A stretch of 64,000 nucleotides of DNA, from the NCBI GenBank assembly GCA_016934265.1, contig JAFGTF010000145.1:5643-69642 (forward strand), read 5' to 3'. Made by a program: the position numbers and the translations under genes. Position 1 is the first letter of the stretch; every line of letters begins with the position of its first letter. This document shows positions 7,083-64,000 of this stretch, one piece after another. Source of the DNA: Spirochaetota bacterium. GTDB lineage: Bacteria; Spirochaetota; B62-G9; DRHN01. Below the pieces are notes generated by a model, which was not told where the DNA came from, did not search any database, and was given only the letters and a program-made list of their open reading frames with translations.

Positions 7083-8573
7083 CTATGTGTATACTTCGAT
7101 GGTCTTTTTCAGCGCATTCGACCACCCGCTGTACAGTTCTTCCCTCTCCGATTCGGCCATGGATGGTTCATACGTCTTGTGAATTTTCCAGACGGATTGT
7201 ACTTCTTCGAGGCTTTTCCAAAAGCCGACTTTCAGTCCGGCGATGAATGCGGTTCCGAGACACGTCGTCTCCGTCACCTCGGGGACAATGACGGGTATGC
7301 CTAAGATGTCCGCCTGAAACTGCATGAGGAAGGCATTTCGAACCGCGCCGCCGTCCGCTTTCATCCGCGATACCTTAAGACCCGTATCATCTTCCATCAT
7401 GCCGATCATATCCCGAACCTGGTACGCGATTGATTCGAGAGTCGCACGCGCTAGGTGCGCCTTCGTGACGGCACGTGTCAAGCCGATGATCGTTCCCCTG
7501 GTCCGGTAATCCCAGTAGGGAGCGGTTACCCCGACGAATGTCGGGACGAAATACACTCCCATGGTGTTCTTTACGCTTACCGCCAGTTTTTCTATGTCGG
7601 ACGCGGAATCGATAATTCCGAGCCCGTCTCGCAGCCACTGGATCGCCGCGCCGGTGATATATACCGCGCCTTCCTCCGCATAAGTAATCTTATTCTCGAG
7701 GCCCAGGGCGATGGTTACCGTCATTCCGTTTTTGGAAGAGGTTATCTCGTCACCGGTGATGAGATATATACCGCAGCTCGTGCCGTACGTCGTCTTGGAA
7801 TCGCCCTTCTCGAAGCATGCCTGGCCGAAGATCGCACCCTGCTGGTCTACGACGATGCCGGTTATCGGAGCCTCTATACCGAGGAAGATCTTCGGGTCAG
7901 TGGTACCGAAATAATATGAGGAAGGCTTCGGATCCGCCAGAATTTCACGGGGTATCGAAAATTCACGAAGCAGCGCATCGTCCCATTGTTTCGTTCTGAG
8001 ATTGAACAACATGGTCCGAGACGCGGACGTGTAATCGGTAAAAAAGCCCGCCCCTCCGGTCAACCGCCATACAACCCAGGTATCAAGGGTGCTTGCCCTG
8101 ACGCGTCCTTTGGGTAATCCGGCCCGTATTTCGGGCACATTCCGTAAAAGCCACTCGATTTTCGTACTCGAAAAAACGGGATCGATATTCAGACCCGTTT
8201 TTTCAGTAATTTCGGCGGAGAGTTTCTCGCCTATTTTATCGCATCTGTCCGCGGTTCTTCTATCCTGCCACACGATATTATTGTAATACGGAGTACCGGT
8301 TTCGGGGTCCCACGCGACGACGGATTCTCCTTGATGGCTGATTCCCACCGCTTCGATCTTTCCCTTGTCAACTTTTGAAACGGACAGAGCCTCCTGCACG
8401 GTATCGAGGAGCAAATTCCATATCACATCCGGATCCTGCTCCACCCAATCCGGGTGCGGGAAGACGAGCGATATTTCCCTGCTTCCGGAGCCTTGGATAT
8501 TGCTTTCTCTGTCGACGATAATCGCTTTTATTCCCGTCGTCCCTATGTCGATTCCAAGAATATACCCCGACAT
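7083..8573 (-). CDS. FGGY family carbohydrate kinase (glycerol/xylulose kinase-like)
   Basis: The N-terminal YILGIDIGTTGIKA motif is the actin-like ATPase signature of FGGY kinases. About 500 aa. ATG at 8573 with a GGAGG RBS; the ORF frame extends to 8615. Confidence 0.8.
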   Translation of the reverse strand: MSGYILGIDIGTTGIKAIIVDRESNIQGSGSREISLVFPHPDWVEQDPDVIWNLLLDTVQEALSVSKVDKGKIEAVGISHQGESVVAWDPETGTPYYNNIVWQDRRTADRCDKIGEKLSAEITEKTGLNIDPVFSSTKIEWLLRNVPEIRAGLPKGRVRASTLDTWVVWRLTGGAGFFTDYTSASRTMLFNLRTKQWDDALLREFSIPREILADPKPSSYYFGTTDPKIFLGIEAPITGIVVDQQGAIFGQACFEKGDSKTTYGTSCGIYLITGDEITSSKNGMTVTIALGLENKITYAEEGAVYITGAAIQWLRDGLGIIDSASDIEKLAVSVKNTMGVYFVPTFVGVTAPYWDYRTRGTIIGLTRAVTKAHLARATLESIAYQVRDMIGMMEDDTGLKVSRMKADGGAVRNAFLMQFQADILGIPVIVPEVTETTCLGTAFIAGLKVGFWKSLEEVQSVWKIHKTYEPSMAESEREELYSGWSNALKKTIEVYT

Positions 8574-8659
8574 GACGCCTCCGTAACCGTTAGCCGTGTA
8601 CCGCAATCCTCCCAACCGCCTGTTTCCTCGATCCGAAATACCACCGCATAAAACCGGTA

Positions 8660-9460
8660 TCAGTGCGCGGGTTCCGGAAACGTCTCTTCGACGTACCAGT
8701 TCGCGGTAAGCCCGCAGTCCACCACAAGATACGATCCCGTTATCGCCGACGCGTCGTCGGAAGCGAGGAACGCGAACGCCGCCGCAACCTCTTCGACTTT
8801 CACCATCCGGTGCATCGGCGTGCGTTTGAAATCTCCCTTCAGATACTTCAGATTATTCACGCTCACCGAATTATCGAGCATCGGGGTGTACGTCCAGCCC
8901 GGACACACGGCGGCGACACGAATATTATGCTCGGCGAGCTCTATGGCCATCATCCTGTTGAGGCCCAAGAGCCCCGCTTTCGAGGAGTTGTAGCTCGCGA
9001 TGAGCCCGTCTCCTCCGAGCGCGTCCATGGAAGCGTTTATGAGGATGACGCCGCCGCCCGTTTTCGCCATTTCACGTCCCACGCGCTGCGACCAGAGGAA
9101 CGTTCCCTTAAGGTTCGTATCGACGACCATGTCCCAGTTTTCCTCGATTACTTCGAGGAAGGGTGCCGCGTGATCCACGCCTGCGTTGTTGATCAGGATG
9201 TCGATACGTCTCCACCTTTTCATCGCCGCATCCACGGCTGCCTGGACCTCGTCTGATTTGGTAACATCGGAGGTGTAATACCAGGCCTTTTTTCCTTGCG
9301 CCGTGATTTTCGATACCGTATCCTCCAACGGTTTTTTTCTCCTGCCGGTAATCAGCACTTCGGCTCCCTCGTCGGCAAAACGAAACGCGGTCGCCTGCCC
9401 GATGCCGGTTCCGGCGCCGGTGATTATTACGTTTTTTCCGGTGTACCTTTTACTGTCCAT
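8660..9460 (-). CDS. SDR family oxidoreductase
   Basis: VIITGAGTGIGQA dinucleotide motif, NNAG, and a Y-x3-K catalytic signature. Confidence 0.8.
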   Translation of the reverse strand: MDSKRYTGKNVIITGAGTGIGQATAFRFADEGAEVLITGRRKKPLEDTVSKITAQGKKAWYYTSDVTKSDEVQAAVDAAMKRWRRIDILINNAGVDHAAPFLEVIEENWDMVVDTNLKGTFLWSQRVGREMAKTGGGVILINASMDALGGDGLIASYNSSKAGLLGLNRMMAIELAEHNIRVAAVCPGWTYTPMLDNSVSVNNLKYLKGDFKRTPMHRMVKVEEVAAAFAFLASDDASAITGSYLVVDCGLTANWYVEETFPEPAH

Positions 9461-54586: not shown

Positions 54587-56377
54587 ATGTCAACTCTATG
54601 GAGCGTGCGCAAAGTGTCTGACATGAAAAACCTACCTGAGGTTGAATTGCTTCTCAAACTTGCGGCCGAACAGAACAGCACCATCACGTATGACCAGATC
54701 AACGAAAACCTGCCGTATACGATAGTAAGCACGGATAAGATCGAGGAGCTGTTCGTCCTCTTTTCCAAGTCGAATATCAGTATAGTGGACAGGATAGAAG
54801 CCGAGGAGGGGGGGAACGGGTCCGCAGGTATAATAAAAAAGGATAAAGCGGAAAAAAAAGACAGTGAAACCGATACCGAGGAAGAGGAGGTAGACGAAGA
54901 GGACGAGGGGGCGGAGAAGAGGGTAATCAACTACGACAGCAGCGCCCATACCGACGATCCGATCAGGCTCTATCTCAAGGAAATAGGAAAGGTCCATCTT
55001 CTCAACGCTGAGGAGGAGGTGAAGCTCGCAAAGGAGATAGAGAAGGGCGAAAAGGTCATCGAACGCGAGCTGTTCTACTCCAACATATTTCTCAAAGAGA
55101 TAAAGAAAACGATCGACAGGGTGAATGGAAAAAAGACCGATATACAGTGTCTTCTCGAATACCAGAAGTTCTATAATATCTCCTCGGAGGACAAACGCAA
55201 GCTAAAGAGAAAGTTCCAGAACCTTGAAAAGCTCCTGGCGGAGAAGGTCATGTTCCCCGTCGAAGGGACGCTGCCGGAATCGGTGCGGAAGGAGCTGTAT
55301 CGCACGTTCAGGCGGGCGAACATCAACAAGGAGGAGATCGAGAGAATATCCAAGAAGGTCGACGACTGTTTTTTTCAGGCGAATGCACTCGAGGAGCTGC
55401 TTTCCGATATCGAGGCGACCGTCGGGAGGAAAGTGCGGGAGATCAAAACGATATACGGCCATATCGAGAAGGGCAAGGGAATCGAGAAGATAAAGGACAG
55501 GTATTTTCCCAACGTAGATCAGATAAAGGAGATATATAACAGGATAAAGGGAGTCGAACGAAAGCTAAAGAAGATCGAGCTCGATACGGGAGAGACGACA
55601 CAGAGCCTGAAGAAGCTCCATCACGCCATCGAAAAAGGAAGAGCGATAATATGCAGGGCGAAGGACAAGCTCATTCAGTCCAACCTTCGTCTCGTGGTGA
55701 GCATAGCGAAGAAGTACACAAACAGGGGCCTTCATTTTTTCGACCTCGTCCAGGAGGGAAACATAGGACTGATCAAGGCGGTCGAGAAGTTCGAGTATAA
55801 GAAAGGGTATAAATTCAGTACGTATGCGACATGGTGGATACGGCAGGCGATAACGAGATCAATTTCGGATCAGGCGAGAACGATCAGGATACCGGTCCAT
55901 ATGATCGAGCAGATCAATAAGGTGATAAAGGAATCCAGACAGCTCATGCAGATGTACGGGAGGGAGCCGACGACAGAGGAGATAGCCAAGAAGCTCGGGT
56001 GGAGTATCTCGAGGGTAAAGGGCATTCGGAGCGTGGCGAGGGACCCGATTTCCCTCGAGACGCCGATCGGCGACGACGAGGAAACGCTCCTCGGAGATTT
56101 CATAGAGGACCGCGACAGCGATAATCCCGCGACGAAGACTTCGTATACGCTGCTGCAGGAGCTTATCACCGAGGTTTTGAATACCCTCCCGGTGAAGGAG
56201 CAGAAGGTTCTGAGGATGAGGTTCGGTCTCGATGACGGATACTCGCATACGCTGGAAGAGGTGGGGTATGTTTTCAACGTAACGAGAGAGAGGATCAGGC
56301 AAATCGAGGCGAAGGCCCTCAGACGGCTTATGCATCCGACACGAAGCAAGAAGCTTCGCGACTATCTCGAAGGTTGA
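54587..56377 (+). CDS. rpoD: RNA polymerase sigma factor RpoD (sigma-70)
   Basis: Region 1.2 [11 protein letters not shown], region 2 [34 protein letters not shown], region 4 [24 protein letters not shown], and an acidic spacer. Alternative start at 54626. Confidence 0.9.
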
Positions 56378-56476
56378 AAAAATCGAGAAATGCGATACGG
56401 TACTCCTCAAAACTCATTTTGATTATGTATTCATTAAGGCCACCGATAATATCTAAAAAGAGTGGGGAGGTGCATA

Positions 56477-56701
56477 ATGTACCTTGTCCTGGTAAAGGAA
56501 AACGGCGAACATACTCTCACGGGAATCGGTGAAGATATCGGTGAGGTCAGGGCAATCATTGACAGGGAAAATCTGAAAAATAAGATAGAGACGGGCAAGG
56601 CATATCTCGTAGAGGGGGTGATACGGCTGATCAGACCGGAAACGACCCCCGAATTGCTCGATGTGAAGACGAAAAAGAAAAAAACTGACAAGTATTACTG
56701 A
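56477..56701 (+). CDS. hypothetical small protein
   Basis: 75-aa ORF with a GGGGAGG RBS and a Lys-rich C-terminus. Confidence 0.3.
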
Positions 56702-56799
56702 CACGGTACCCGCGGTGGGAGGGAGCCCTGAAATCATATAGAGAAGAACTCTGGTTCGATATCCCCGACAGATTCGGGCTGGTCAATATCACGGACGAG

Positions 56800-57147
56800 G
56801 TGGAAAAAACGCTCGATCAGTCCGGGATTCGCGAGGGATTATGCCTCGTCAACGCAATGCACATTACCGCGAGCGTCTTCATAAACGATGACGAGAGGGG
56901 GCTGCACGAGGACTACAAAAGGTGGCTTGAGCGGCTCGCACCACATGAACCCGTCTCGCAGTACCTTCACAACCGCACCATGGAGGACAACGCGGATGCC
57001 CATATGAAGCGACAGCTCATGGGAAGAGAGGTGGTTGTCGCGGTTACCGACGGGAAACTCGATTTCGGACCGTGGGAGCAGATCTTTTACGGGGAGTTCG
57101 ACGGCAGAAGAAAAAAGCGTGTGCTCGTCAAGATCATCGGAGAATAA
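56800..57147 (+). CDS. YjbQ/UPF0047 family protein (secondary thiamine-phosphate synthase-like)
   Basis: [19 protein letters not shown]...[14 protein letters not shown] core of the YjbQ family. The conserved N-terminal region continues upstream in-frame to about 56728 without a canonical start codon. Confidence 0.6.
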
Positions 57148-57254
57148 CAGAGAGGCGGCACGCATTGTGAGAACGCGTCTCAACATCCTTCAGGGTTTTT
57201 TAATGCCCTCCCATACTAAATGCAGGCGGCAGATCAAACATCGTTCCGAAAAAA

Positions 57255-57385
57255 AACCTTGACAGTCCCTTGCGACAATTTAAATTTAATTCAAAACTGT
57301 AATAAAAGCAATCTATACGGATTATGATTGAAATATTGCGAGACGGCAACATTGATAAAAAATTGTCTATAATTTGAGAGGGTAA
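57255..57385 (+). promoter_or_regulatory. strongly AT-rich putative promoter region upstream of cooC
   Basis: TTGACA hexamer (about 57260) and a perfect TATAAT (about 57372) inside a 250-bp AT-rich island that contrasts with the GC-rich background. Confidence 0.3.
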
Positions 57386-57501
57386 ATATTGTTAAAATAT
57401 TATTTATATTGATTTTTTAAGGGATTTTGTTTAAGCTAACGCCAGCTCAACAATAGCAAAAAATAAACAAAGACCAGCAATTATATATACTGGATCGCTT
57501 T

Positions 57502-58278
57502 ATGAAGCTTGCAGTGACCGGGAAGGGAGGAGTCGGGAAGACGACGTTCTGTGCACTCTTGTCCCACGCACTGATAAAGAAGGGGCACAAGGTCTTGCTC
57601 ATAGACGCCGATCCCGACATGAACCTCGCAACAGTCATCGGAATCCCCGAAGAAACGAAAATTACACCAATAGTCGAGCTAAAGGAGCTCATTGCGGAGC
57701 GGACCGGGGTGGAGCCCGGAAAACCCGCGCCGCTTTTCAAGATGAATCCCCGGGTGGACGATATACCGGACCGGTTCTGCGTTTCCCACAACGGGATGAA
57801 GCTCATCGTAATGGGAACGATCCGTTCCGGAGGTGGGGGGTGCGCCTGTCCGGAAAATGCGTTTCTAAAAAGCCTCCTCTCGTATCTCGTGGTGGCCACC
57901 GATGAATGGGTGATCCTCGACATGGAGGCGGGCATCGAGCACTTGGGCCGCGGTACGGCCATCGGTGTGGACTGCATGATCGTCGTCGTGGAGCCGAACC
58001 GAACGAGTATCGAGACGGCGGACCGAATAAAACGGCTCGCCGGTGAGATAGGGATTAAGCGCGTGCTGCTCGTGGGAAACAAGACGGAAACAAAAGAGGA
58101 GAGAGAGTATCTCTCGAAGCATACGGAAGGTCACGAGATCATCGGTTTTTTAGATATTTCAGACGGCATTCGAAACCTGAGCCGTACCGGAGGCTCGTTC
58201 GAAGACCCGGGCGGCAGATCGATGCAACAGGTCGATCTGATTTTGGAACAACTAACGGCTGTCGGGGCGGCGAAGTAG
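57502..58278 (+). CDS. cooC: CO dehydrogenase nickel-insertion accessory ATPase CooC
   Basis: MKLAVTGKGGVGKTT Walker A of the MinD/CooC family. 258 aa, adjacent to cooS. Confidence 0.8.
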   Translation: MKLAVTGKGGVGKTTFCALLSHALIKKGHKVLLIDADPDMNLATVIGIPEETKITPIVELKELIAERTGVEPGKPAPLFKMNPRVDDIPDRFCVSHNGMKLIVMGTIRSGGGGCACPENAFLKSLLSYLVVATDEWVILDMEAGIEHLGRGTAIGVDCMIVVVEPNRTSIETADRIKRLAGEIGIKRVLLVGNKTETKEEREYLSKHTEGHEIIGFLDISDGIRNLSRTGGSFEDPGGRSMQQVDLILEQLTAVGAAK

Positions 58279-58584
58279 CGCCCCGCTCCCGCTGTAATTT
58301 TGGGGGGATGTAGCACCCTATATGCTCGTAACCGGTTCATAGAGAAAGGTTAAAGGCCCTTTTTACATAAAAGTGGTTTAACCCCCTCCTTTTTACAGAA
58401 AGCGGGATGAGCAGCCAAGGTGCACTAGAGCGATATCACAAAACACAAGAGAGAGCCGGTATGTATGGCAAAACAGCTCTATCTTCTGAACTGTTAATGT
58501 TTTATCAATGTAACGTTTCTTACCAAAGAGGTATGACAAAGGTACACTTTACATAAACCAAATATCAGGTATGGAGGAGAACTA

Positions 58585-60510
58585 ATGGCGAAAGAGCTGA
58601 AGTATGCTGATAAGGCATCACAGGCCATGGTTAAACGGGCGTGCGACGAAGAGATAAAGACGGTATGGGACAGATACGAGGATATGCAGCCGCAGTGCGG
58701 CTTCGGCACACTCGGTATCTGCTGTAAGAACTGTAGCATGGGACCCTGCAGGATAGACCCGTTCGGAGACGGACCGCAGGAGGGGATATGCGGGGCCAAC
58801 GCGGACACGATAGCGGCGAGGAATCTAGTGCGTATGGTCGCCGGAGGAGCGGCAGCGCATTCCGACCACGGACGTGATATCGCGCATACGCTGTTGATGG
58901 CAGCAGAGAACCCGGAGAGCGACTACAAGGTGAAGGACGCCGACAAGCTCAAACGGGTAGCGGCCGTCTACGGTATCAAAACGGACGGGAGAGAGATAAA
59001 AGAGATCGCAGCGGATGTCGCACGGGCCGCGCTTGAAGAGTTCGGGCGACAGGAGGGCGAAGTTCAGATGATAAAGAACGCTCCCGCCGCCAGGCAGAAG
59101 GTGTGGAAGGATCTCGGGGTGACCCCCCGTGCGATAGACCGTGAGATCGTGGAGATTATGCACCGCACGCATATAGGTGTGGACACGGAGTACAAGAACA
59201 TCGTCAAGCAGGGCATACGAGCCTCGATCGCCGACGGATGGGGCGGCTCCATGGTAGCGACCGAGCTCTCGGACATACTGTTCGGCCTGCCCAAACCGAT
59301 CAGGGCTACGGCAAACCTCGGAGTAATCGACAAGGACTACGTGAATCTCATCGTTCACGGGCACGAGCCCACCCTGTCGGATATCATCGCAACGGTGTCA
59401 CAGAAAAAAGAGCTCGTCGAAAAGGCGAAGAAGGCCGGGGCCAAGGGCATCAATCTCGCAGGGATCTGCTGTACGGCCAACGAGATACTGATGCGGCACG
59501 GGATAGCAGTCGCGGGGAGCGTTATGCAGCAGGAGCTCGCGGTGCTCACCGGCGCTGTCGAGCTGATGCTCGTCGATGTGCAGTGCCTCTATCCCGGACT
59601 CGAAACGGTGACCAAATGCTTTCACACGAAGCTCGTCACGACGTCGCCGAAGGCGAAGATGCCGGGCGCGGAGCACATTGAGTTTCACGAAGACCGTGCG
59701 GTCGAGATTGCAACGCAGATCATAGAGGCCGCCATCGACAACTTCAAGAACAGGAACAGTGAAAATATTCATATCCCGAAGAACACTGAGCGGCTCGTCG
59801 CGGGGTTTTCGGCGGAGTCGGTCTTCGATTTTCTCGGCGGAAAGTACAGGTCGACCTACCGCCCGCTCAACGACGCGGTAATAGCGGGGAGGATTCGCGG
59901 CGCGGCCGGCGTGATCGGCTGCTCCAATCCGAACGTTCCATACGAGGAAGGCCATATAAAAATGGTGAAGGAGCTCATAAAGAACGACGTGATCGTCGTT
60001 ACCACCGGATGCAACGCGATCTCGTGCGGCAAGCACGGGCTCTTACAGCCGGAAAGCGCGTTCAAGTATGCCGGAGAGGGACTCCAGGAGGTATGCAGGG
60101 CGGTGGGCATTCCTCCGGTACTGCATCTCGGGTCGTGCGTCGACAACTCCAGGATTCTCATGGTGCTCGCAAACGTTGTAGCCGAGGGAGGGCTCGGTAG
60201 TGACATCTCGGATCTGCCGGTTGCGGGAGCGGCACCCGAGTGGATGAGCGAGAAGGCTGTTTCGATCGGCATGTATTTCGTCGCCTCGGGAGTGTATACG
60301 ATGATCGGGCATCCGCTGCCGGTCATGGGGAGCAAAAACCTGTACAAGTACCTCACAGAAGAGATGGAGCAGGAAATAGGCGGGAAGTGGGCGTTCGAGC
60401 TCGACCCCATAAAGGCGGCACACAAGATGATCGAGCATATCGACAAGAAGAGGGCCGCGCTAAAGCTGAAGCCTTTGATGTACGCGCAGGCGTTCGAGCC
60501 TGTCGCATAA
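58585..60510 (+). CDS. cooS: anaerobic carbon-monoxide dehydrogenase catalytic subunit CooS
   Basis: N-terminal B/D-cluster Cys motif CGFGTLGICCKNCSMGPCRI, about 640 aa, and CooS-typical internal Cys/His motifs (GICCTANE, GCSNPN, TGCNAI, HLGSCVDNSR). Confidence 0.9.
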   Translation: MAKELKYADKASQAMVKRACDEEIKTVWDRYEDMQPQCGFGTLGICCKNCSMGPCRIDPFGDGPQEGICGANADTIAARNLVRMVAGGAAAHSDHGRDIAHTLLMAAENPESDYKVKDADKLKRVAAVYGIKTDGREIKEIAADVARAALEEFGRQEGEVQMIKNAPAARQKVWKDLGVTPRAIDREIVEIMHRTHIGVDTEYKNIVKQGIRASIADGWGGSMVATELSDILFGLPKPIRATANLGVIDKDYVNLIVHGHEPTLSDIIATVSQKKELVEKAKKAGAKGINLAGICCTANEILMRHGIAVAGSVMQQELAVLTGAVELMLVDVQCLYPGLETVTKCFHTKLVTTSPKAKMPGAEHIEFHEDRAVEIATQIIEAAIDNFKNRNSENIHIPKNTERLVAGFSAESVFDFLGGKYRSTYRPLNDAVIAGRIRGAAGVIGCSNPNVPYEEGHIKMVKELIKNDVIVVTTGCNAISCGKHGLLQPESAFKYAGEGLQEVCRAVGIPPVLHLGSCVDNSRILMVLANVVAEGGLGSDISDLPVAGAAPEWMSEKAVSIGMYFVASGVYTMIGHPLPVMGSKNLYKYLTEEMEQEIGGKWAFELDPIKAAHKMIEHIDKKRAALKLKPLMYAQAFEPVA

Positions 60511-60560
60511 AAAGACCGCATCCTAACGGTGCGATTTCAAATATGAAGTGAGGAAACGCG

Positions 60561-61097
60561 ATGGCTAAAACAATAGTGATAGAAATCGAAAGGTGCATGG
60601 GATGCAGGTCCTGCGAGTTCGCGTGTGCGGTGGCCCATTCCGGTTCGAAGGACCCCGAAACGATCGTCATAAGCGGGGATAAGCCCGGTTATAGGATCAA
60701 TATCGAGTCATACGGGCGTAACGCGGTTCCCGTGCACTGCAATCACTGCGAGGAGGCGGCATGCCTGCTGGCCTGTCCGACGGGAGCCATCCATAGGGAC
60801 AGCGATAAAGGCCCGGTGCTATTCGAGACGGAGCGGTGCATAAGCTGCAGGATGTGCGTCCAGGCTTGTCCCTTCGGTGTCATAACGATAAGCCCCTCGG
60901 GAAAAGGCGTCTTGAAATGCGACCTCTGCATCGAGCGGCTAAAAAAGGGTCAAGATCCCGCCTGTGTCGTGCACTGCCCGACCGGGGCGCTCCGCTTCAT
61001 CGAAGAGGAGGACGCCAGCAAGGCGAAACGGCAAAAGACGGCGAAGCGGCTGGTGGAGGCACGGCAGGCAACGGAAGGAATGGAGGGGGGAGACTGA
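60561..61097 (+). CDS. cooF: 4Fe-4S ferredoxin-type iron-sulfur protein CooF
   Basis: Four C-x2-C-x2-C-x3-CP clusters (CMGCRSCEFAC, CNHCEEAACLLACP, CISCRMCVQACP, CDLC...HCP). 178 aa. Confidence 0.8.
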   Translation: MAKTIVIEIERCMGCRSCEFACAVAHSGSKDPETIVISGDKPGYRINIESYGRNAVPVHCNHCEEAACLLACPTGAIHRDSDKGPVLFETERCISCRMCVQACPFGVITISPSGKGVLKCDLCIERLKKGQDPACVVHCPTGALRFIEEEDASKAKRQKTAKRLVEARQATEGMEGGD

Positions 61098-61099
61098 GA

Positions 61100-61372
61100 G
61101 TGAGCGAAAACCGCAAGATCATCGTGACGGTATGCGTGGGAAGCTCCTGTCATATCAAGGGCGCCCGTGACGTGATCATGCGCTTCAACGAGATGCTGAA
61201 AGAGGAGGGGATCGAAGACAAGGTCGAGCTGAAGGGGTCTTTCTGCATGGAGCGCTGCGGCGAGGGTATCAACTGGCAGATCGACGAAGAGCCGTTGACG
61301 AGCTCGTATGTGGACGACGCGGTAAAAGTCTTCCGCGAGAGGGTAATCAGGCCGGTTAAAGACGAAATGTGA
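61100..61372 (+). CDS. thioredoxin-like [2Fe-2S] ferredoxin (NuoE-fold small protein)
   Basis: C-x4-C (CVGSSC) and C-x3-C (CMERC) pairs in about 90 aa. GTG start 3 nt after the cooF stop, with a GGAGGGGGG RBS. Confidence 0.5.
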   Translation: MSENRKIIVTVCVGSSCHIKGARDVIMRFNEMLKEEGIEDKVELKGSFCMERCGEGINWQIDEEPLTSSYVDDAVKVFRERVIRPVKDEM

Positions 61373-61929
61373 TCATGCTCCGGCGCACGAAACGGGGGCA
61401 TATACGAGTGATGAAAGAAAAGAACGAACAGCAGAATACACCGTTGCACCAGAGCGCGATACTGGAACAGACGCCGAACGGTGTGCTGCTCGTAGACAGC
61501 AAGACGAATATCAGGTATGTGAACCCTTCGTTTCGCGAGATGTTTCACTGCAGCGGCGAGGAGCTCTTGAATCGGCCGGCGGCAAAGTTCGTTCATTCGG
61601 ACTGTTTTGAAAGGGCCATAGCGGTGGGCGGGAAGCTCATGGTCAAGGAAAGCGTTCCCGTTCACAAGGTGAGCTACCGTGTCGGGATATTCCCGATAGA
61701 GGGGGAGGATCTCTACTGCGGGATCTTCATCGATATTTCCGAAGAGGAGGACGCAAAGAAGCATTACCGCGAGCTGAGGGCGCAGACGCTGGAACGGGCC
61801 CAGGAGGTGATCTCCAGGCAGATGAAAACGGCCCAGGAGATCGCACGGCTTCTTGGAGAGACCACGGCGGAGACGAAGGTACTGCTCGTCAAGCTCATGT
61901 CACTGTTCAAGGAAGAAGGCACCCCATGA
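61369..61929 (+). CDS. PAS domain-containing sensor protein
   Basis: PAS-like core (ILEQTPNGVLLVDSKTNIRYVNPSFREMF...) with three conserved-looking Cys. GTG overlaps the upstream stop (ATGTGA); alternative ATG at 61411. Confidence 0.45.
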   Translation: MIMLRRTKRGHIRVMKEKNEQQNTPLHQSAILEQTPNGVLLVDSKTNIRYVNPSFREMFHCSGEELLNRPAAKFVHSDCFERAIAVGGKLMVKESVPVHKVSYRVGIFPIEGEDLYCGIFIDISEEEDAKKHYRELRAQTLERAQEVISRQMKTAQEIARLLGETTAETKVLLVKLMSLFKEEGTP

Positions 61930-63077
61930 AGCTGTTTTATGAATGGGGGACGAATCAGATCAGGAAGCACGGCGAGGAGTTGTGCGGAGACAGTATCGCG
62001 GTGTCGAGGCATCAAGATTCCGTGACCCTGGCGTTGTCCGACGGCCTGGGGAGCGGCGTGAAGGCGAATATTCTCGCTACGCTCACGACGAGCATCGCCA
62101 TGCACATGCTCGAAAACGATCTGCCCTTAGGCGAGGTGGTGCAGACGTTGAGTGAAACGCTGCCGGTGGACAGGGTCAGAAACCTCGCTTACAGTACCTT
62201 TGCAATAGCGAAGTTCCAGAGCAATGGACCGGCGTGGGTGGTGGAATTCGATTCTCCCTCCGCGATGCTGTTACGGCGGCGGAAGGTTGTTCCCCTCGTG
62301 TACGAAGACAGGGTGATCGACGGAAAAATGATACACGAGTCGGTCATCGACCTCGAGATCGGAGACTGGGTCGTATTCGTCTCGGATGGAGTGTTGAACG
62401 CGGGCATTGGGGGCGTATATCCGCTCGGCTGGGGATGGGAGCAGGCTGCCCATTTCCTCGAGGAGCACGCGCACAGGGAATTGACGGCCACCGCCCTGGC
62501 GGAAAAGATGTCGGAGGCCGTAAACGGGTTGTATGCGGGTGCTCCCGGCGACGACGTGAGCATCATCGTAATAAAGGTCCGTCACAAGGTCGTGACGAAT
62601 GTGTTCACGGGGCCGCCGGCGAACAGGGCCCTGGACTCGGAGATCGTATCGAAGTTTCTCAAGCGGTCGGGCACGCACGTGGTATGCGGCGGCACGACGG
62701 GAAAGATCGTTTCCCACCACATGGGGCAGCCGCTGGTGGTCGATCTGAATACGATGACCCCCGACGTTCCGCCTATCGCGCGGGTGGAAGGAATCGACCT
62801 GGTTTCGGAAGGCATTCTCACCCTCACCAGGGTGAACGATCTTCTGCGCTCAGGCGTGGACAAGGACACGGTGAAGTTCAATACGGACGGCGCGGCGAAC
62901 CTGATACGGTTCTTTCTTGACGCTGACCACATTCACTTTCTCGTCGGGCACGCGGTCAATCCCGCGCACCAGAACCCCGAGCTTCCGAACCAGCTCGGTA
63001 TCCGCATGCTGGTCGTCCAGGAGATCGGAGAGGAGCTTAGAAGGCGCGGCAAGGAGGTCAGCGTAGAGGCGGTGTGA
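61926..63077 (+). CDS. SpoIIE/RsbU-type PP2C serine phosphatase with C-terminal domain of unknown function
   Basis: PPM motifs CGDSIAV, LSDGLGSGVKA, FVSDGVLNAG and DDVSIIVI in the N-terminal 215 aa. The C-terminal 165 aa match no known family. ATGA overlap with the PAS gene. Confidence 0.55.
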   Translation: MKLFYEWGTNQIRKHGEELCGDSIAVSRHQDSVTLALSDGLGSGVKANILATLTTSIAMHMLENDLPLGEVVQTLSETLPVDRVRNLAYSTFAIAKFQSNGPAWVVEFDSPSAMLLRRRKVVPLVYEDRVIDGKMIHESVIDLEIGDWVVFVSDGVLNAGIGGVYPLGWGWEQAAHFLEEHAHRELTATALAEKMSEAVNGLYAGAPGDDVSIIVIKVRHKVVTNVFTGPPANRALDSEIVSKFLKRSGTHVVCGGTTGKIVSHHMGQPLVVDLNTMTPDVPPIARVEGIDLVSEGILTLTRVNDLLRSGVDKDTVKFNTDGAANLIRFFLDADHIHFLVGHAVNPAHQNPELPNQLGIRMLVVQEIGEELRRRGKEVSVEAV

Positions 63078-63088
63078 CGAAAGTCCGT

Positions 63089-63121
63089 CATGAGGTCTCG
63101 CGACCTCATTCCGGTTTTTTT
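63089..63121 (+). terminator. rho-independent terminator
   Basis: ATGAGGTC-tcgc-GACCTCAT hairpin followed by TCCGGTTTTTTT, 12 nt after the TGA at 63075-63077. Confidence 0.65.
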
Positions 63122-63372
63122 GCAGAAAACGACGAGGCCGAAGCCTCTTAACCGTTTTCTGCATACATGAATGACACTATATGTAAATGTCATTGCGAGC
63201 GAAGACCCTTCGGTCTTATATACACCACAATAGTCTTAAACAATTGTGGCTTGTACAGAAGCAATCGAATACTACCGGGATAAAAAGAATCCCGATAGTA
63301 TTACGGAAGAAAACGACGAGGTAGAAGCCTGTTGGCCATTTTATGTAAACATGACTGTCATTGCGAGCGTGA
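63118..63372. repeat. two copies of a roughly 70-bp direct repeat, the first forming a long perfect hairpin
   Basis: GAAAACGACGAGG(CC/TA)GAAGCCT at 63124 and 63309. GTCATTGCGAGCG at 63190 and 63355. Copy 1 forms TGCAGAAAACG...CGTTTTCTGCA (63120-63162) with a nested GAGGC-cgaa-GCCTC. Confidence 0.5.
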
Positions 63373-63458
63373 ATACTCAGCAGGAGTTTTTATGCGAAGC
63401 AATCTACAAATTTATATGATGACAAAAAACTTTGTAAAATAAAACAGGGGCATGCCCT

Positions 63459-63947
63459 ATGTCTGATAAACTTATCGAAGAGATTATACGACGTTACGAT
63501 GGGGACTCGGGAATGCTGATACCCATGATGCAGGATTTGCAGGCCGACAAGGGCTATCTGCCGCCGGAACGGCTTCGTACTCTGGCGAAGGAGCTATGTG
63601 TCCCGCTCGCCAGGATTTACCACGTTGCAACGTTTTATGCCTCTTTCCGGCTGGCTCCCAGGGGGCAGCACGACGTCACCCTCTGCATGGGTACGGTGTG
63701 CTACTTGAAAGGGGCCGGGAAGATCTCCGAGGCCATTTGCGAGGAGTACGGGATAGAGCCGGGCGGCACGACGGCGGACAGGCTTTTTACATTGCAGGCG
63801 GTCAACTGTGTGGGGGCCTGCGCACTCGCACCGGTTATGATAGTGGACGGCAAGTACTACGACGGGGTGACATCCGAGTCGGCGCTGAAGATAATTTCCG
63901 GGCTCAGCACGGAAGCCCCAACTGCGGAGGCGGAGGCTGGAGGGTGA
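63459..63947 (+). CDS. NuoE-like [2Fe-2S] subunit (HydC/HndA-type, hydrogenase or NADH dehydrogenase 24-kDa subunit)
   Basis: C-x4-C (CMGTVC) and C-x3-C (CVGACALAP) pairs and the NuoE-family pattern LQ..Q...GYLP in about 160 aa. Confidence 0.75.
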   Translation: MSDKLIEEIIRRYDGDSGMLIPMMQDLQADKGYLPPERLRTLAKELCVPLARIYHVATFYASFRLAPRGQHDVTLCMGTVCYLKGAGKISEAICEEYGIEPGGTTADRLFTLQAVNCVGACALAPVMIVDGKYYDGVTSESALKIISGLSTEAPTAEAEAGG

Positions 63948-63959
63948 GCATGAAAGTTG

Positions 63960-64000
63960 AGGGGCGCATTGCAAGCAAGGCGGAGTTCGAGCGACTGCAG
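63960..64000 (+). CDS. partial CDS (5' end only), next gene of the hydrogenase-type operon
   Basis: ATG at 63960 (MKVEGRIASKAEFERLQ...) 13 nt after the previous stop. Truncated by the window edge. Confidence 0.3.

Follow-up and report, generated by a model that had tools for sequence, protein, structure and literature searches.

The question raised by this locus is why genes for a small ferredoxin, a PAS protein and a PP2C-type phosphatase should stand directly behind CODH genes, and what they might do there. The window, i.e., the whole stretch of DNA analysed, comprises 64,000 nucleotides of contig JAFGTF010000145.1 from a Spirochaetota bacterium, and all features described below lie on its forward (+) strand. 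The interval of interest opens with a cooC-like gene (57502–58278), which an earlier sequence-only reading had left unnamed; it encodes a Ni-insertion P-loop ATPase with Pfam matches to CbiA, AAA_31 and ParA, a GKGGVGKT P-loop and a CAC motif. After a spacer of 306 nt comes cooS, encoding the Ni,Fe-CODH catalytic subunit (58585–60510; Prismane, E 1e-178; TIGR01702, 682 bits against a cutoff of 478), followed by genes for a cooF-like poly-[4Fe-4S] ferredoxin (60561–61097; Fer4_11, E 1.6e-23), a 90-aa thioredoxin-like [2Fe-2S] ferredoxin (Fd; 61100–61372; PF01257, E 3.6e-5), a 173-aa PAS protein (61408–61929; PAS, E 2e-10) and a 383-aa SpoIIE/PP2C phosphatase (61926–63077). These family matches agree with the identities that had been proposed for cooS, cooF, Fd, PAS and SpoIIE/PP2C.

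The same reading had described the five genes as chained by overlapping or abutting start and stop codons. This holds for two of the junctions: cooF ends with TGA (61095–61097), not with the TAA that had been given, and is followed by 'GA' and the GTG of the Fd gene at 61100, and the PAS and PP2C genes do overlap in an ATGA junction at 61926–61929. It does not hold for cooS and cooF, separated by 50 nt, and probably not for Fd and PAS. The 3' end of the Fd gene reads ...ATG TGA (61367–61372), so the proposed ATGTGA is present, but an overlap there needs GTG 61369, merely the most upstream possible start of the PAS gene. Since the identical contig L001 has the gene called from 61408 and the Fd–PAS spacers of relatives are 16–26 nt long, this junction is probably a spacer of about 35 nt, and the PAS start is probably 61408/61411.

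The arrangement was then compared with 80 species-level loci from at least seven phyla, as labelled in the titles of the MAG records. Synteny was based on tblastn; longest-ORF gene calling was abandoned for this purpose, having yielded antisense ORFs in GC-rich loci (families 1, 13, 35, 37, 41 and 42). As far as the contigs reach, the core order cooF-Fd-PAS-PP2C-nuoE-nuoF-bfuA is invariant in all 80 loci, bar the decayed L062, whose cooF copy is truncated; because the order recurs in these loci of other species, a chance arrangement is ruled out. The spacings are short as well: cooF lies immediately 5' of the small Fd gene in 70 loci, with a gap of no more than 30 nt in 66 of them; the Fd–PAS gap is equally short (≤30 nt) in 68 of 75 loci; and the PAS–PP2C spacing ranges from −4 to +21 nt in 76 of 76 loci, 59 of which have an overlap of 4 or 1 nt. 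Gene order and spacing together show that Fd-PAS-PP2C truly belongs to the CODH gene set and is closely coupled to it, and, as the earlier reading had it, the layout is not that of a canonical coo operon. Two layouts were found, with cooS either before cooF (36 loci) or after bfuA (22 loci), and in both of them cooF remains with Fd-PAS-PP2C; in most of the 80 loci a cooC gene stands ahead of cooS or cooF. Complete genomes with the cluster include CP070841.1, CP070696.1, CP070830.1, CP070728.1 and CP070715.1.

Downstream, the relatives carry acsB-acsD-RACo-cooC, which identifies the whole as a Wood-Ljungdahl CODH/ACS cluster; in the source organism these genes would lie past the window end, and the downstream content was taken from close relatives (PP2C 83% and 73% identical) and from contig L001. 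The best explanation as a whole, to which we assign a probability of roughly 0.6, is that the 5' portion of a conserved CODH/ACS supercluster, belonging to an uncultivated Spirochaetota bacterium, lies in the window, in the order cooC / cooS-cooF-Fd-PAS-PP2C / nuoE(bfuC)-nuoF(bfuB)-bfuA-like-acsB-acsD-RACo-cooC2, and that a putative redox-sensing module with a phosphatase output has moved from hydrogenase to CODH and a Bfu-type complex. An Rfam scan of 56300–64000 gave no match at E ≤ 1, and therefore no riboswitch or known leader; a search for the Rex operator (TTGTGAAnnnnTTCACAA, up to 3 mismatches) gave 4 matches against 1.8 expected, none of them in the intergenic regions of the cluster; and an alignment of the long cooC–cooS spacers of 22 loci contained no conserved block.

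The phosphatase gene is followed by an intrinsic-terminator-like hairpin with a T-run (63090–63121; hairpin 63090–63109; dG −20.1 kcal/mol, z −3.95, with 0 of 200 shuffles folding as well). The strong terminator that had been noted after the phosphatase is thus real here, but a comparable site occurs in just 7 of 81 loci, and it is a lineage-specific peculiarity, not a general feature. It nevertheless counts against the preferred reading, as in this genome it splits the triad from the bfu genes. The spacer between PP2C and nuoE, widened by a two-copy direct repeat (63124–63369), measures 381 nt, the longest of 81 loci, 40 of which have a gap of 55 nt or less. Beyond it lie a nuoE/HydC/BfuC-like gene for a [2Fe-2S] subunit (63459–63947; PF01257, E 9e-48) and the 5' end of a nuoF/HydB/BfuB-like gene, which leaves the window (63944–64000). 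On the identical contig L001 the latter runs for 229 aa and is 80% identical to a 617-aa protein of L002, composed of an N-terminal 2Fe-2S domain, an FMN domain, NADH_4Fe-4S and a C-terminal 2x[4Fe-4S] part; what is seen of the source organism downstream is therefore bfuC and the first 229 aa of bfuB, the remainder being supplied by relatives. Their bfuA-like gene encodes a 261-aa Fe-S protein resembling the N-terminus of HydA, with Fer2_4 and 2x[4Fe-4S] domains and without an H-cluster domain. In 82 related loci, a tblastn search with HydA matched at residues 0–200 alone; none of these loci has an H-cluster domain, and there is no catalytic [FeFe] hydrogenase next to the triad. The hydrogenase operon once placed 380 bp downstream is accordingly replaced by nuoE/nuoF-like (BfuC/BfuB) and bfuA-like genes, and the suggested tie to an [FeFe] hydrogenase context falls with it.

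The closest described system for this part is Codh-Bfu, which was proposed from four Firmicutes sequences and read as CO oxidation (Schut et al. 2022, PMC9304861). It shares BfuC, BfuB (N-terminal 2Fe-2S, C-terminal 2x[4Fe-4S]) and a BfuA-like protein interleaved with CODH genes; unlike it, the genes described here are joined to acs genes, over Spirochaetota, Planctomycetota and other phyla, and they include the Fd-PAS-PP2C triad, of which the Codh-Bfu paper makes no mention (PMC9304861).

A relationship of the triad to hydrogenases does exist at another level, one which the sequence-only reading had missed. A set of Fd (80–130 aa), HydS (571–593 aa) and PP2C (384–400 aa) genes was found in six other contexts, beside HydA, rex-hydCBA or hydEFG, where HydS combines Fer4, Fe_hyd_lg_C, FeS and PAS domains. 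The small thioredoxin-like [2Fe-2S] Fd stands upstream of HydS in all six of these loci, the PP2C members adjoining HydS align over their full length, and the Fd of the window is 35% identical to that upstream of Clostridium botulinum HydS (E 4e-20). The PAS protein matches residues 406–562 of the 574-aa HydS of L086 (33% identity, E 1e-22), the match being confined to the C-terminal PAS domain and helical tail of HydS; this tail is kept in all eight proteins of the PAS protein/HydS alignment. The triad is, by these likenesses, an evolutionary relative of Fd-HydS-PP2C of the group C 'sensory' [FeFe] hydrogenases (hfsABC-type), a comparison made with the HydS proteins of the sampled loci and, for Thermoanaerobacterium Hfs, by description. 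Like Thermoanaerobacterium hfs and Ruminococcus albus HydS, it has the order small Fd, PAS/tail protein and 380–400 aa PP2C with the same C-terminal domain, with similarly overlapping stop and start codons and a NuoEF/HydBC-type complex alongside. Unlike HydS, the PAS protein lacks the N-terminal Fer4, the H-cluster domain and the Cx2Cx4Cx16C FeS motif and has three new invariant Cys; the neighbouring complex is without an H-cluster, and the catalytic partner is CODH/ACS. The homology could be taken to mean that the module senses H2, as HydS does, but with no H-cluster domain in the PAS protein or in the 82 loci this has next to no probability.

The literature on the relatives points to a regulatory role. 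The hfs operon has a genetic regulatory effect that requires hfsC/D, and deletion of hfsB alters adhE expression and ADH activity (PMC5707799). HfsC is a serine phosphatase by description, and HfsA is described in the same paper differently from a small ferredoxin, which counts against the preferred reading (PMC11837493); how sensory [FeFe] hydrogenases pass on their signal has yet to be worked out (PMC11376134).

The Cx4C...Cx3C cysteines of the Fd are invariant across 75 loci. In the PAS protein, a PAS domain in which three Cys are invariant is followed by a conserved helical tail of about 45 aa (76 loci); the same tail likewise precedes the phosphatase on the short contig of P0129. Pfam searches of the PAS protein returned PAS matches alone, with no H-cluster domain (Fe_hyd_lg_C) and no DNA-binding domain, neither CRP nor LytTR HTH. 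A weak match of the tail to a designed helical repeat (E 0.009) had raised the idea of an HTH, which was dropped because even a threshold of E ≤ 10 brought up no HTH family from Pfam. None of the three triad genes belongs to a two-component or chemotaxis system. The ORFs of 56.3–64 kb and ten further ORFs of the window include neither CooA nor RcoM, in line with the earlier statement of their absence, and no factor of this type is recurrent among the 80 loci. A PAS domain is found in RcoM too, and in coo operons with CooA or RcoM the sensor is encoded with the CODH genes, as here; these systems differ in that the PAS protein of the triad is without a DNA-binding domain and the output is a phosphatase. 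The PAS protein gave no evidence of haem.

The phosphatase comprises a SpoIIE/PP2C (PPM) domain (61926–62585) and a Rossmann-like C-terminal domain (CTD) of about 163–165 aa (62586–63077). The metal-binding Asp motifs of the PPM active site are all kept in at least 98.6% of 436 members, and the predicted fold is that of PP2C; the enzyme is thus putatively intact in its catalysis. This bears on the view that the triad is non-regulatory and consists of extra electron-transfer or scaffold subunits of the CODH-Bfu complex, PP2C being a pseudo-enzyme. The triad sits among structural genes within a single conserved unit, and such overlaps of stop and start codons would suit stoichiometric production; on the other side, along with the retained Asp motifs, PAS and PP2C have no Fe-S motifs beyond the three Cys, and hfs genetics indicate regulation (PMC5707799). 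Such a structural role seems very improbable.

For the C-terminal 164 aa, no Pfam family matched at E ≤ 0.01, in agreement with the earlier remark that this part resembles no nameable family, and the best match of a CTD profile to PDB sequences was no better than E 0.2. The domain occurs in at least 932 clusters at 50% identity, C-terminal in proteins of 380–400 aa, and is a hallmark of the phosphatase family. In a confident model, its invariant residues (GPP, CGGT, EG, DG and G..NPAHQNP) are placed at the C-terminal ends of strands or at the N-termini of helices, the usual ligand site in Rossmann-like folds; the pattern is pocket-like, and a ligand site is predicted.

The sequence-only reading had the PAS protein sensing CO or redox state and PP2C acting, as RsbU or SpoIIE does, on an anti-sigma antagonist, thereby controlling a sigma factor that serves CO metabolism and the adjacent operon. 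The catalytic domain is indeed that of RsbU and SpoIIE. In the RsbU/RsbV/RsbW and SpoIIE/SpoIIAA/SpoIIAB systems, however, the phosphatase works with a STAS substrate and a GHKL kinase, for which no counterpart was found nearby: the gene families recurrent within ±10 kb across the 80 CODH-type loci include neither STAS nor RsbW-type genes, and the Pfam-annotated flanks of seven HydS-/LDH-type loci contain none; nor is a kinase or phospho-acceptor gene conserved in cis among the families recurring in the 80 loci. Sigma/anti-sigma control is therefore unsupported and, the family having a regulatory domain of its own that is C-terminal and unrelated to those of RsbU and SpoIIE, partner switching is unlikely, although its partners could be encoded elsewhere.

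A different source of the signal has somewhat more in its favour. The input may be a cytoplasmic metabolite, such as NAD(H) or some other nucleotide, to which the Rossmann-like CTD and/or PAS responds, in a general regulator of fermentation or redox balance for which CODH/Bfu is a local target or simply a neighbour. PAS(+tail)-PP2C-CTD is the sole invariant pair across contexts: in L092, where Fd, CODH and hydrogenase are all missing, its neighbour is an NAD-dependent lactate dehydrogenase, and in L091 Fd-HydS-PP2C has no adjoining catalytic hydrogenase. The pocket-like pattern of the CTD and the effect of the hfsB deletion on adhE expression and ADH activity (PMC5707799) fit the same idea. 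Against it, the CTD fold match is too generic for naming NAD(H), neither layout parts cooF and the small Fd from PAS-PP2C, not even the one in which cooS has moved, and the CODH-type PAS has gained three invariant Cys. Retention of cooF and Fd, together with the three Cys, indicates a local Fe-S/redox input, and a metabolite as the principal signal is possible but rather doubtful.

In the preferred reading, CooS and CooF, with the NuoEF/Bfu-type flavoprotein, would connect NAD(H) and ferredoxin with the CO2/CO couple; the Cys-bearing PAS protein would receive from the small [2Fe-2S] Fd a signal of how far this electron path is reduced; its tail, possibly together with a ligand of the Rossmann-like CTD, would switch PP2C; and PP2C would dephosphorylate a phosphoprotein encoded elsewhere, so that CODH/ACS-Bfu activity or expression would be tuned to redox balance. 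The three Cys weigh against it in one respect, as they are missing in HydS and in another PAS-only relative, and the Cys-bound cofactor is putative. A more specific version, drawn by analogy with the sensory hydrogenases, is a 'sensory CODH', in which electrons released by CO/CO2 turnover at CooS would pass through CooF and the small Fd to a Cys-liganded cofactor of PAS and thence, through PP2C, set the phosphorylation state of CODH-Bfu/ACS or of its regulator; this version is offered as a tentative possibility.

That CODH/ACS is so constantly paired with a NuoEF/Bfu-type flavoprotein suggests, for Spirochaetota, Planctomycetota and other uncultivated anaerobes, a putative coupling of CO2 reduction to NAD(H) and ferredoxin, and it extends the Codh-Bfu class, as predicted from genes, well past the four Firmicutes sequences. 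The CTD family, with its at least 932 clusters, merits a family model of its own, and the PAS tail with PP2C-CTD is the conserved output part, here free of hydrogenase and thereby shown to be a portable module. We know of no post-translational regulation of CODH/ACS. The presence of the triad in a widely conserved CODH/ACS cluster suggests a putative phospho-regulation of CO2 fixation; if true, it would be the first case in which Ser/Thr phosphorylation controls the Wood-Ljungdahl pathway, and the locus would offer a simpler, hydrogenase-free system for working out the unsolved signalling from HydS to PP2C.

On the forward strand, the 57.5–64 kb part of the window carries genes for a CooC-like P-loop ATPase (57502–58278), CooS (58585–60510; TIGR01702, 682 bits vs. 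a cutoff of 478), CooF (60561–61097), a thioredoxin-like [2Fe-2S] ferredoxin of 90 aa (61100–61372), a PAS protein (ending at 61929), a SpoIIE/PP2C protein of 383 aa (61926–63077) and a NuoE-like protein (63459–63947, 381 nt beyond the phosphatase gene), followed by the start of a further gene, about 50 nt of which lie inside the window. The gene set and layout described in the sequence-only reading were largely right, with small errors in junctions and gene calls: the ferredoxin gene does end in ATG-TGA and the PAS and PP2C genes overlap in ATGA, but cooF stops with TGA, not TAA, the cooF/ferredoxin junction being TGA-GA-GTG. The distance between cooS and cooF is 50 nt. The GTG behind the ATGTGA overlap is simply the most upstream candidate PAS start; in the identical contig L001, the gene call begins at 61408, and the ferredoxin–PAS spacers of relatives measure 16–26 nt. 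The cooC/cooS spacer (58279–58584, 306 nt) recurs in relatives, with a median of 299 nt where cooS precedes cooF, and contains neither a sequence block conserved among them nor an Rfam match. Further upstream, an ORF of 79 aa (56462–56701), with no Pfam family on record, lies between rpoD and yjbQ; it has an apparent same-position counterpart in the gene calls of the related loci L003 and L004, and a similar small protein occurs in loci L013–L016.

Distant relatives of the phosphatase (35–45% identity) were found in Clostridium and other anaerobes. Six of their contexts contain a thioredoxin-like ferredoxin (80–130 aa), then the sensory [FeFe] hydrogenase HydS (571–593 aa; Fer4, Fe_hyd_lg_C, FeS and PAS domains) and then the phosphatase (384–400 aa), and these modules adjoin HydA, rex-hydC-hydB-hydA or hydEFG. 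This order agrees with how the hfsABCD operon and R. albus HydS are described in the literature (PMC5707799, PMC11837493). The window's PAS protein matches a 574-aa HydS over residues 406–562 of the latter (33% identity, E 1e-22), and its ferredoxin matches the one upstream of the same HydS (35%, E 4e-20). The best-conserved element common to PAS-only proteins and HydS is a C-terminal helical tail of ~45 aa, A(Q/R)xVIxxQMxxAQxIAxLLGE..AE(T/S), ending in an always-present Ser/Thr; this tail (…AQEIARLLGETTAETK…) is found in the window's PAS protein (61750–61929) and at the HydS C-termini of loci L086, L087, L088, L089 and L091. Taken together, the two alignments and the shared tail indicate that the ferredoxin–PAS–PP2C triad is a HydS-type signalling module without the hydrogenase domain. 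Despite the tail's superficial likeness to a helix-turn-helix, it has no match among the HTH families of Pfam.

Three cysteines (in FHC, SDC and YCG) are invariant in 76 PAS proteins from loci with the triad in a CODH/ACS cluster and absent from HydS, and four ferredoxin cysteines are invariant in 75 loci. A second hydrogenase-less form of the module is represented by L092 (JGI 3300069939, 7493–9137), a locus without ferredoxin, CODH or hydrogenase, where a lactate dehydrogenase gene is followed by genes for a PAS-only protein (168 aa), which has the same tail and lacks the three cysteines, and for a phosphatase with the same C-terminal domain (CTD). This lactate dehydrogenase-linked relative favours a metabolite-sensing input to the PAS/PP2C module, which we nevertheless consider rather improbable.

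With each species represented by one genome, a scan revealed 80 loci with a phosphatase 62–83% identical to that of the window; their MAG record titles name Spirochaetota, Planctomycetota (Phycisphaerae, Pirellulales, Sedimentisphaerales), Fibrobacterota, Verrucomicrobiota, Kiritimatiellae, Anaerolineales, Sumerlaeota and Aegiribacteria. According to tblastn synteny, the order cooF-Fd-PAS-PP2C-nuoE-nuoF-bfuA-like holds as far as contigs reach, with the sole exception of L062 (CP070830.1, 8907–12943), where cooF (83 aa aligned) and nuoF (377/617 aa) are truncated, the bfuA-like gene and cooS are missing, and the triad is intact; the cluster seems to have degenerated here. In 36 loci, as in the window, cooS precedes cooF; in 22 it lies behind the bfuA-like gene, abutting acsB, and in both layouts cooF lies next to the triad. 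The PAS and PP2C genes overlap by 4 or 1 nt in 59/76 loci and are at most 21 nt apart in the others, and gaps of at most 30 nt separate cooF from the ferredoxin gene in 66/70 loci and the latter from the PAS gene in 68/75. A Pfam-confirmed DUF3786 gene lies directly upstream of cooC in the Planctomycetota-type loci L046, L048, L052, L060, L063, L070, L074, L075, L077 and L085, preceded in loci of this type by MoeA/MoaA/MoaC/MogA/MobA-like genes of molybdenum-cofactor biosynthesis, judged by eye from sequence. The Spirochaetota loci L009, L025, L026, L030, L035 and L066 contain, upstream of cooC on the opposite strand, a gene for a 645-aa sensor histidine kinase, and L009, L025, L026 and L030 have one to three receiver-domain genes as well; these genes, absent from the window, are possibly an additional, lineage-specific regulator of the cluster.

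The terminator noticed earlier after the phosphatase gene is present in the window (hairpin plus T-run, dG −20.1 kcal/mol, z −3.95), but a terminator-like hairpin occurs in this gap in just 7/81 loci. The gap itself, ≤55 nt in 40/81 loci, is largest in the window and contains a 53-nt direct repeat (63124–63176 and 63308–63360, 79% identical) and two exact copies of the 14-mer TGTCATTGCGAGCG (63188–63201 and 63356–63369), absent elsewhere in the window. Since the spacer is the longest among the 81 related loci, the repeat is suggestive of a local duplication or a small inserted element; together with the rarity of the hairpin, it marks the operon break as a peculiarity of the window rather than a general trait of the system.

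The content past position 64000 was inferred from relatives. From contig L001, which runs on past the window, 229 aa of a NuoF/HydB-like protein can be read, 80% identical to a 617-aa protein of the Spirochaetota chromosome CP070841.1, where, as in JGI contigs, the order is nuoE-like, nuoF-like, a gene for a 261-aa protein, acsB, acsD, RACo, a second cooC and acsC. The NuoF-like protein of relatives comprises an N-terminal 2Fe-2S domain, an FMN domain, NADH_4Fe-4S and a C-terminal 2x[4Fe-4S]; in the 261-aa protein, solely Fer2_4 and two [4Fe-4S] motifs are present. When 82 loci were searched by tblastn, the queries being one HydA and two HydS-type proteins, matches were confined to the PAS/tail region, short Fer4 motifs and HydA residues 0–200, and none covered the H-cluster domain. 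The downstream unit, read from sequence alone as a hydrogenase operon, thus appears to be a HydABC/Bfu-like flavoprotein module without hydrogenase, joined to a Wood–Ljungdahl CODH/ACS cluster. An enzyme of this kind, the uncharacterised 'Codh-Bfu', has been proposed on the basis of four sequences from Firmicutes (PMC9304861).

At the level of sequence, homology, architecture, conserved gene coupling, intact catalytic motifs and the absence of any H-cluster are demonstrated. H2 sensing by the triad is excluded by the missing H-domain, and a purely structural, non-regulatory role is unlikely, since the catalytic residues are conserved. In the reading we favour, the ferredoxin and the Cys-bearing PAS protein would sense how reduced the CooS/CooF/Bfu electron path is; PP2C activity would be set by the PAS tail, and possibly also by a ligand of the CTD, and the target of the phosphatase would be a phosphoprotein whose gene lies elsewhere. 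Partner-switch control of a sigma factor by the PP2C protein, the sigma/anti-sigma style suggested initially, is unsupported, since genes for STAS proteins, RsbW-type kinases or other kinases do not recur in cis at related loci, but might still involve partners encoded in trans. In the literature, the way in which sensory [FeFe] hydrogenases signal is described as unknown (PMC11376134; PMC8163306), and hfs genetics points to regulation dependent on hfsC/D (PMC5707799). Full-text literature searches found no description of cooS-cooF clusters that contain a SpoIIE/PP2C gene. We class the triad as a known but mechanistically unsolved module, the apparent novelty being its hydrogenase-free form and its metabolic context.
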